DNA of 64,000 nucleotides from Eledone cirrhosa (lineage: Eukaryota). Of this stretch, positions 19,432 through 21,174 are shown in pieces. Positions within the stretch are counted from its first letter, which is position 1. Every line of letters begins with the position of its first letter. The notes beneath the pieces were generated by a model that was given only the letters and a program-made list of their open reading frames with translations, searched no databases and was not told the origin of the DNA. The stretch spans positions 20,274,001-20,338,000 of the forward strand of contig OZ024766.1 of NCBI GenBank assembly GCA_964016885.1, given 5' to 3'. Made by a program: the position numbers and the translations under genes.

Positions 19432-19498
19432 CATGTGCGTCTCTGTAGTAGGCGTTGGTGACACTGCGAAATCTTTCTTGTCCTGCTGTGTCCCAGAT
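19432..19498 (-). CDS. RAB37: Rab26/37 exon 4B, switch II variant (IWDTAGQERFRSVTNAYYRDAH)
   Basis: 67 nt, acceptor CACTTCCAG, donor GTATAT, phase 0-1; close to canonical RSVTHAYYRDA. Confidence 0.93.
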
Positions 19499-20010
19499 CT
19501 GGAAGTGAGAGAACATAGAGAGACAGAGACAAACAGAGAGAGGGGGGCTGAGAGAGAGGTGGAGAGACAGAAAGAGCGAAAGGAAGAGTTAGAAAGTATT
19601 AGAGAGAAAGAGAGGAAGAGTTACAGAGTGTGGGAGAGACACAGAGAGAGGGTGAGTGAGAGAGAGAGACAGAGACAAACAGAGAGAGGGGGGCTGAGAG
19701 AGAGGTGGTGAGACAGAAAGAGCGAAAGGAAGAGTTAGAAAGTATTAGAGAGAAAGAGAGGAAGAGTTACAGAGTGTGGGAGAGAGACAGAGAGAGAGGA
19801 GAAGAGAGAGAGAGAGAGGTAGAGAGGTAGAGAGAGGTAGAGAGAGAGAGAAAGAGAGAGGTAGAGAGAGGTAGAGAGAGAGAAAGAGAGAGGTAGAGAT
19901 ACACTGAAAAGCAACAGAGTGAATAAGAAAAGCATAAGACAGAGAGGGTTGAATAGAGACAAACAGACAGACAGACAGACTGGTATCACACCTGTGTATA
20001 TATATATACA

Positions 20011-20049
<39 letters not shown>

Positions 20050-20504
20050 GTGTGTGTATATATATACATATATGTGTGTGTGACTATATATATCATTATC
20101 ATTAACGATGGTGTGTGTGTGTGTGTGTGTGTGTGTGCAACACCAGAAAAAAACAAACGAGAACACTACAATAACAAATTAAAGACAAACATAGTTATTT
20201 TTTTGACATGCTGAAAGAAAAATGAAAAAAAAAAAAGACTTTTTAACGTTTCGGACCAATGTCCTTCATCAAAAAGAAGAAGTAACAAGGGGGAAAAGCA
20301 AAAGAGATAGAGGTAAAGAGAAAAATGGGGTGGAAAAGGATAGGAAAATGTGCAGACATATATATGTGTTATGTTGGTGCTGTGCTGAAAAATGTTTAAG
20401 AGGAAAAAAGTGTTTTCATGCAAGAGAGTGAAGAAAGGGGAGGTAAGCAGGGGTAACAATCTTGGGAATATGTATTTATATATGTGGGTAGATGTTGGAA
20501 AGGT

Positions 20505-20627
20505 GGAGTAGTAGTAGTTGTAGTGGTGTGGTAATAGTAATAGTGGGGGTGCTAGTAGTGATAGAAGTAGTAGTAGTAGTGGTAGTAGTGATAGTAGTAA
20601 TAGTAGTAGTAGCAGTGGTAGTAGTAA

Positions 20628-20668
<41 letters not shown>

Positions 20669-20680
20669 ATAGTAGTAGTG

Positions 20681-20714
<34 letters not shown>

Positions 20715-21098
20715 TAGTAGTGGTAGTGATAGTGATAGTGGTAGTAGTAGTAGTCTTAGTGGTGGTGGTGGTAGTAGTAGTAGTGGTAGTGGTAGTAGTA
20801 GTGGTAGTGATAGTGATAGTGGTAGTAGTAGTAGTCTTAGTGGTGGTGGTGGTAGTAGTAGTAGTGGTAGTGGTAGTAGTAGTAGCAGCAGTGGCAGTAG
20901 TAGTGGTAGTAGTAGCAGTAGTAATAGTAGTAGTAGTAGTGGTAGTAGTAGTAGTAGCCATAGTAATGCTAGTAGTAGTAGTAGCAATAGTAGTAGTAGT
21001 GGTGGTGTTAGCAGCAGTGGGAGGTAGTGATGGCAGGAGAAGGTAGTAGTAGTAGTAGCAGTGGTGGTAGTAGTGGTGGTGGTAGTAGTAGTAGTGGT
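20505..21098. repeat. (GTA)n-rich trinucleotide tract
   Basis: Direct inspection. Confidence 0.95.
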
Positions 21099-21107
21099 AC
21101 AACATAC

Positions 21108-21174
21108 CATTAGCGTCACGGTAGTACCCTCGTGTTATACTGCGAAATCTCTCCTGTCCGGCTGTGTCCCATAT
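21108..21174 (-). CDS. RAB37: Rab26/37 exon 4A, switch II variant (IWDTAGQERFRSITRGYYRDAN)
   Basis: 67 nt, acceptor CATTTCAG, donor GTATGT, phase 0-1, WDTAGQE motif. Confidence 0.9.

Follow-up and report, generated by a model that had tools for sequence, protein, structure and literature searches.

The window, as we call the whole 64,000-nucleotide stretch of Eledone cirrhosa DNA that was analysed, contains a Rab gene of 11 exons spread over 8737-47837, which a six-frame motif scan and tblastn with relatives placed in the order 1A, 2A, 1B, 2B, 3, 4A, 4B, 5, 6, 7 and 8 (Table 1). The last exon ends in GGCC-stop, which we take to be the prenylation motif. Only a single such locus was found in the species' own genome: among 49 matches, none of high identity lies elsewhere. 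The part encoded by exons 5-8 is 112/117 identical to a Rab37-like protein of Octopus sinensis, and in a tree of these exons the window groups with coleoid proteins at 100/98. We assign the gene to Rab26/37 because it is closest to that group, has an RDA(H/Q/N) switch II and carries a duplicated switch I exon, in a tree whose deep branches are unresolved (23 of 43 inner branches); from the same tree, no phylum assignment was obtained for most of the Arg-type proteins (described below) that lack a species name. The best PDB match of exon 4B and of the O. sinensis isoform X4 is human Rab26 (2g6b for 4B).

Table 1. Exons of the Rab26/37 gene and repeat arrays flanking exon 4A in the window.
Feature	Position	Strand	Remarks
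First exon 1A, coding part, leads into 2A	47718..47837	-	tblastn of P0010/P0123; donor gtaagt
Exon 2A, P-loop/switch I, 111 nt	40097..40207	-	counterpart is the human RAB37 TILVGDSGVGK exon
First exon 1B, coding part, leads into 2B	29730..29873	-	start of O. sinensis X1/X2 similar
Exon 2B, P-loop/switch I, 111 nt	26650..26760	-	counterpart is the human VMLLGD exon
Exon 3 (interswitch), constitutive	23816..23857	-	
(GUA)n-type array just upstream of 4A, transcript sense	21195..22320	-	leaves a pyrimidine tract of ~20 nt
Exon 4A, switch II, Arg-type (IWDTAGQERFRSITRGYYRDAN + 1 nt)	21108..21174	-	probable lophotrochozoan-specific copy; peptide also in coleoid P0010, P0011 and Sepia P0125
(UAC)n-type array just downstream of 4A	20507..21099	-	sequence complements the upstream array; a long stem around 4A is predicted
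Exon 4B, switch II, likely ancestral His-type, octopod Asn at codon 15 (IWDTAGQERFRSVTNAYYRDAH + 1 nt)	19432..19498	-	peptide also in O. sinensis X1/X3 and Argonauta
Exon 5, constitutive	13986..14038	-	
Exon 6 (NKxD), constitutive	10892..11014	-	
Exon 7 (ETSAK), constitutive	10020..10096	-	
Exon 8, coding part, ends GGCC-stop	8737..8839	-	

The introns of this gene hold other elements. A tRNA-Glu(TTC) gene lies on the same strand between 2A and 1B (37376-37448, minus strand). Fragments that by eye resemble a LINE or reverse transcriptase occur at 16500-18360 (plus strand) and 11350-12490 (minus strand), one of them holding a 109-nt unit repeated 11 times at 97%, and a dispersed element with a 49-nt tandem unit is found in both orientations in several introns (14607-15202, ~28640-29480, 36640-37200 and 44040-44240).

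Exons 4A and 4B are two homologous switch II exons in tandem within one gene. They are 67 nt apiece and in phase 0-1, with AG/GT ends (acceptor ...atttcag and donor gtatgt for 4A; ...cttccag and gtatat for 4B), and are separated by an intron of 1609 nt. The preliminary description, made from the letters of the window, had reported this length and phase, a frame that breaks if both exons or neither are included, and seven synonymous and four replacement codons, and it was exact on each point. The 16/67 nucleotide differences comprise synonymous changes at codons 1, 5, 7, 8, 14, 19 and 21 and replacements at codons 13 (I/V), 15 (R/N), 16 (G/A) and 22 (N/H), all of the latter 3' of ...RFRS; the stretches DTAGQ, RFRS and YYRD are the same in both. 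By the NG86 method, dN is 0.13 and dS 2.0, over 22 codons only. Because no further 67-nt stretch on either strand of the whole window resembles 4A at 36/67 or more positions, the likeness of the two exons is not a matter of chance. When the exons were joined by script, either 4A or 4B singly gave an open frame to the GGCC end (231 aa from the 1A-2A start, 239 aa from the 1B-2B start). Inclusion of both produced a premature stop 234 nt before the last junction, and omission of both one 190 nt before it; under the usual 50-nt rule, both products would be targets of nonsense-mediated decay.

We then compared isoforms across species. Three homologue searches, for which the best 120 of 366, 3880 and 6734 matches were listed, and three cluster look-ups yielded 24 named pairs of the same species and the same length (10 + 2 + 12, picked after the names had been seen). 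In every one of the 24, the two isoforms differ solely inside the switch II exon, at codons 13, 15, 16 or 22. The pairs come from O. sinensis, whose X2/X4 forms differ from window 4A only at codon 22; the gastropods Babylonia, Gigantopelta, Patella and four Haliotis; bivalves (oysters, mussels and scallops); the chiton Liolophura; the brachiopod Lingula; and the nemerteans Lineus and Tubulanus. Codon 15, which is Arg in 4A and His in 4B (Asn in octopus, a residue common to Octopus and Argonauta), separates all 24 pairs. The other codons are less regular: codon 22 differs in 23 pairs, codon 13 in 16 and codon 16 in 2, with Ile at codon 13 in both forms of eight pairs and His at codon 22 in both Tubulanus forms. 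Within the Arg type, codon 22 varies (N 57, H 3, E 3, Q 2, D 2) and codon 13 is Ile in 67/67 exons. Most of these pairs are automatic gene models; RefSeq isoform models are usually based on RNA evidence.

To see how the two types are distributed, we tallied 223 named proteins, with labels copied by hand and with rows lacking a name, other Rabs and one exon-less fragment excluded. Both types are kept in 22 of the 45 named lophotrochozoan species, while 17 show only Arg and 6 only His or Asn, single-type species partly reflecting which cluster representatives were listed. Among the matches listed, all 96 deuterostome and ecdysozoan proteins, from 78 species, have His; this lack of Arg carries some weight, since one search started from an Arg-type query and His-type vertebrates already occupied its lower ranks, though within the best 120 matches. 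Human RAB37 and the other outgroup proteins that we examined have a single switch II exon of the His type. The contrast between uniform His in the outgroups and the mixture in lophotrochozoans implies that the His type is likely the ancestral form and that the Arg type was likely added in lophotrochozoans, whose phyla involved here split in the Cambrian or earlier, more than 500 million years ago. The earlier suggestion of an old duplication under purifying selection is thus upheld by the 24 pairs and by the independent contig described next, and the duplication is older than the window alone could show. The companion suggestion, that 4B is close to canonical Rab26/37 and 4A the unusual variant, needs refining: 4A is pan-lophotrochozoan and the sole copy in several lineages, and octopod 4B itself has a derived Asn15.

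Genomic DNA from elsewhere shows the arrangement of the exons directly. A single scan of metagenome contigs, with a pattern made of the Arg-type exon end plus donor, found 39 loci with 26 distinct 4A sequences. Eighteen contigs reach exon 5, and one of them, L039, holds both exons in the order 3-4A-4B-5-6-7, the same as in the window, with a 4A-4B intron of 334 nt; its best summed matches among named proteins are, by a small margin, the annelids Capitella and Owenia. Between the window and L039, 4A differs from 4A by 11 synonymous and 2 replacement codons and 4B from 4B by 13 and 1, whereas crosswise comparisons give 3-4 replacement codons. The ab initio models P0004, P0129 and P0156, from mussels and oyster, run through 4A and then 4B, again in the window's order. 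In the other 17 contigs, no second switch II copy was found before exon 5 (best 32/67 nt, 7/22 aa). Because 10 of these loci also include exon 3 and so span exon 3 to exon 5 without a second copy, 4A is their sole switch II exon. Most 4A-only loci look annelid-like, and two share peptides with the Watersipora protein P0068; they could be orthologues without 4B or duplicated genes. Since 4A stands alone in several lineages, it is no pseudo-exon and can serve by itself, and the 17/18 contigs lacking 4B mean that, on their sequence, the pair is dispensable in some lineages.

Both exons are used in spliced transcripts of relatives. Logan contigs from a coleoid relative encode P0010 and P0011 (with 4A) and P0123 and P0124 (with 4B) in full; at 1.1-1.9 kb, against 39 kb for the gene here, these contigs represent spliced transcripts. 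In the tree of exons 5-8, P0010 falls with Sepia at 99/93. Each exon is thus used singly in these contigs and in the RefSeq pairs, that is, in relatives only. The preliminary description had proposed mutually exclusive use, and in relatives the 24 pairs, the spliced P0010 and P0123 and the order in L039 support it. Forms with both exons or neither are missing from the protein sets, as expected from protein annotation, in which frameshifted forms are invisible.

Overall, these data make it very probable that the 4A/4B pair is real, ancient and used in a mutually exclusive manner. Our main reading, to which we give a probability of roughly 80%, is that 4A and 4B are tandem copies of the Rab26/37 switch II exon, likely the product of one early lophotrochozoan duplication, likely spliced one or the other, and predicted to swap the partners of the GTP-bound protein. 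Exchanging the exons would spare the catalytic core DTAGQ and so leave nucleotide handling shared, and codon 15 (Arg versus His/Asn), together with codons 13 and 22, would retune the effector or regulator surface. On balance, we lean towards distinct partners for the 4A and 4B proteins.

The positions concerned are consistent with such a role. Codon 13 falls on Rab3C I95, and passages of PMC9308819 describe this residue as making a hydrophobic contact in the complex with Rep15. Codon 17, which adjoins the variable codons 15-16, falls on Y99 of the aromatic triad in the same protein. With the register taken from the Rab3C passages, codon 13 also corresponds to Rab27A L84, part of a triple mutant that a passage of PMC3418316 describes as deficient in effector binding. 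The passages covered from these two papers do not list codon 15, the strictest discriminator, among the contacts, and the I/V change at codon 13 is mild. In alignments, Rab39 and Rab4 have the same codon-15 residue as the Arg type. Mammalian Rab26, of the His type, is placed on synaptic vesicles and binds Atg16L1 in the portion of PMC4337689 covered; no functional study of an Arg-type Rab26/37 was found in the literature covered.

The human RAB6A/A' pair had been named as the precedent, and it serves as one by analogy, not by homology. It too is a tandem duplicated exon over a Rab switch II, with an unchanged catalytic motif, few residue differences and isoforms that differ in one effector. 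Its residue 87 stands at the position of codon 22, and work by Echard in 2000 is said to have made that residue the decisive one. Supplement rows of PMC8373072 list it as one of three differences between RAB6A and RAB6A', and binding of KIF20A differs between the two, as parts of 10.1101/2023.01.05.522745 and PMC2174079 report. RAB6A/A' (event 172 in the same supplement) belongs, however, to another Rab subfamily and is dated there to Vertebrata, as against a lophotrochozoan origin here; its exons are 106 nt long and, by the listed coordinates, 68 nt apart start-to-end, compared with 67 nt and a 1609-nt intron; and the main change here affects codon 15, inside the switch II helix, with an effector difference that is predicted only. 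The two events share neither gene, exon bounds nor origin: they work alike and arose separately.

RAB6A/A' also bears on the best-surviving alternative, in which the exons are exclusive and their proteins equivalent, the pair being kept as a splicing/decay rheostat for Rab26/37 dose or by inertia. RAB6A and RAB6A' are described as largely redundant in a passage of PMC7538953, the differences between 4A and 4B are few and partly mild, and several lineages live on 4A alone. Redundancy, however, would not keep two different residues fixed, and Arg versus His/Asn at codon 15 has been kept in 24/24 pairs from three phyla while synonymous sites turned over. We therefore consider equivalence unlikely.

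How exclusivity might be enforced is suggested by the introns. At 1609 and 334 nt, these look too long for steric exclusion of the kind seen in very close exon pairs, which we think unlikely here, branch points having been motif-scanned only. We favour instead a model in which a splicing choice would enforce exclusivity and nonsense-mediated decay would clear products with both exons or neither. By blastn, no conserved intronic element is shared by the window and L039, the matches being exons only, plus ~9 nt past the 4A donor, and no docking/selector-type pairing is evident in the predicted fold of L039, for which there was no shuffle control. In the 4A donor region (21099-21107, minus strand), 8/9 intron bases match those past the 4A exon of L039. 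The donors of both exons begin GTAY in the window and in L039, a small sample.

The immediate surroundings of 4A raise the question of whether, in E. cirrhosa, an exon that is real in relatives has been largely silenced, its acceptor eroded by repeat arrays and the exon folded into a stem-loop. Complementary arrays lie on both sides of 4A, with 529 predicted pairs between them in a fold without shuffle control, and the acceptor looks weak: the final 60 nt contain AG 11 times, and a scan of 1200 nt finds no YTRAY. Arrays of this kind are common, however, forming five clusters in the window; moreover, decapod coleoids have exactly the same 4A peptide, and neither splice dinucleotide of the exon is disrupted. 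Silencing is thus improbable, and on these predictions the arrays and weak acceptor may lower 4A inclusion in E. cirrhosa.

The single origin that we favour could be challenged by several independent duplications across lophotrochozoan lineages, all converging on Arg at codon 15. Genomic DNA with both exons was observed in two genomes only, the window and L039, 67 nt hold little phylogenetic signal, and recurrence of this sort is reported for ACOX1 in section 17 of PMC8373072. Against this, the Arg-type exon comes first in the window, in L039 and in the mussel and oyster models, Ile13 is invariant among the 67 Arg-type exons, and the Arg type occurs in 0/78 outgroup species among the matches listed, which makes repeated origins very unlikely. 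That 4A and 4B represent separate genes, a fragment of a pseudogene or a duplication made by the assembly, an idea encouraged by a window rich in recent tandem copies (four extra 2A exon ends included), is scarcely credible and already contradicted by the one Rab26/37 locus among own-genome matches, by 16 differences skewed to synonymous sites and by isoform pairs identical outside the switch II exon.

Outside what the preliminary description had found, the same gene contains a second duplicated pair. The P-loop/switch I exon is present as 2A and 2B, 111 nt each, with its own first exon before each copy. These are the exons of event 171 of PMC8373072 (section 17 and supplement entries), the human RAB37 P-loop/switch I duplication, which is dated there to Bilateria and shared with Drosophila, and the 2A peptide is nearly identical to that of the human exon. 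That event concerns exon 2 and not exon 4, making 4A/4B an added second module. The same sections suggest that the residues differing in the RAB37 switch I pair form a surface patch for different partners, and human RAB37 isoforms differ by tissue according to part of PMC9714508. All four combinations of 2A/2B with 4A/4B are annotated in six species, O. sinensis included. A promoter-linked choice of 2A or 2B in switch I, combined with 4A or 4B, would give four effector surfaces from one gene, and partner differences among the four Rab26/37 isoforms are predicted. In the coleoid cluster, Logan contig counts are 39+2 for 2A with 4B and 1 for 2A with 4A; because such counts do not measure expression and every combination is found in annotations, we do not claim coupling between the modules.

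No description of the 4A/4B pair was found in the literature covered, which left most subscription papers outside its scope and took in the supplements of PMC8373072 only; the main text of PMC9741552, as far as it was covered, has no mention of RAB37, RAB26 or RAB6. The event could be listed in genome-wide splicing tables for molluscs. The isoforms themselves already exist as automatic models, and those of Aplysia, oyster and octopus sit unnoticed in annotations; what is new is that the pair is recognised as such, how far it extends across the clade, that some lineages have 4A only, and the design in two modules. Tandem mutually exclusive exons are a well-known class of mechanism, which limits the surprise. 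The locus adds to that class a dated, clade-wide case in which an exon was duplicated and some lineages then apparently lost the ancestral copy. Through two ancient exon duplications, a single gene seems able to vary its two switches independently of each other; for a Rab linked to secretory and synaptic vesicles, this amounts to a natural 2x2 experiment on what decides effector choice.

A more far-reaching combination of these elements is tentative, and we would put it somewhat short of even odds. A promoter would swap switch I and splicing switch II, giving four products with distinct effectors or regulators according to secretory or neuronal cell type; the Arg switch II would be a lophotrochozoan innovation half a billion years old that, in some annelid-like and bryozoan lineages, took over completely from the His type; and in Watersipora the switch I forms would have split into two genes. 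In Watersipora subatra, the Arg-type Rab37-like proteins P0068 and P0107 are encoded by separate large contigs and differ in switch I, which resembles 2A in one and 2B in the other. This arrangement suggests former splice forms that have become separate genes.

Several further features of the first exons and the switch I exons were observed. Searched against protein representatives, exon 2A gave 2 matches, both unrelated-looking. Divergence is greater in exon 2B than in 2A: where the window reads ATFLAGSY, O. sinensis has GTFLSGSF and most molluscs have GAFLSGSF. Octopod 1B is unlike decapod 1B. The last 25 nt of 2A, with its donor, are repeated four more times downstream within 39345-40121 (minus strand; the 33-nt match starts at 39988, 39859, 39700 and 39377), and these copies are possible decoy 5' splice sites. 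Finally, many vertebrate and arthropod RefSeq Rab37 models (e.g. P0254, P0256 and P0260-P0264) hold 2A and 2B together in frame and so have two P-loops, which reflects either genuine read-through splicing or an annotation pattern that recurs.
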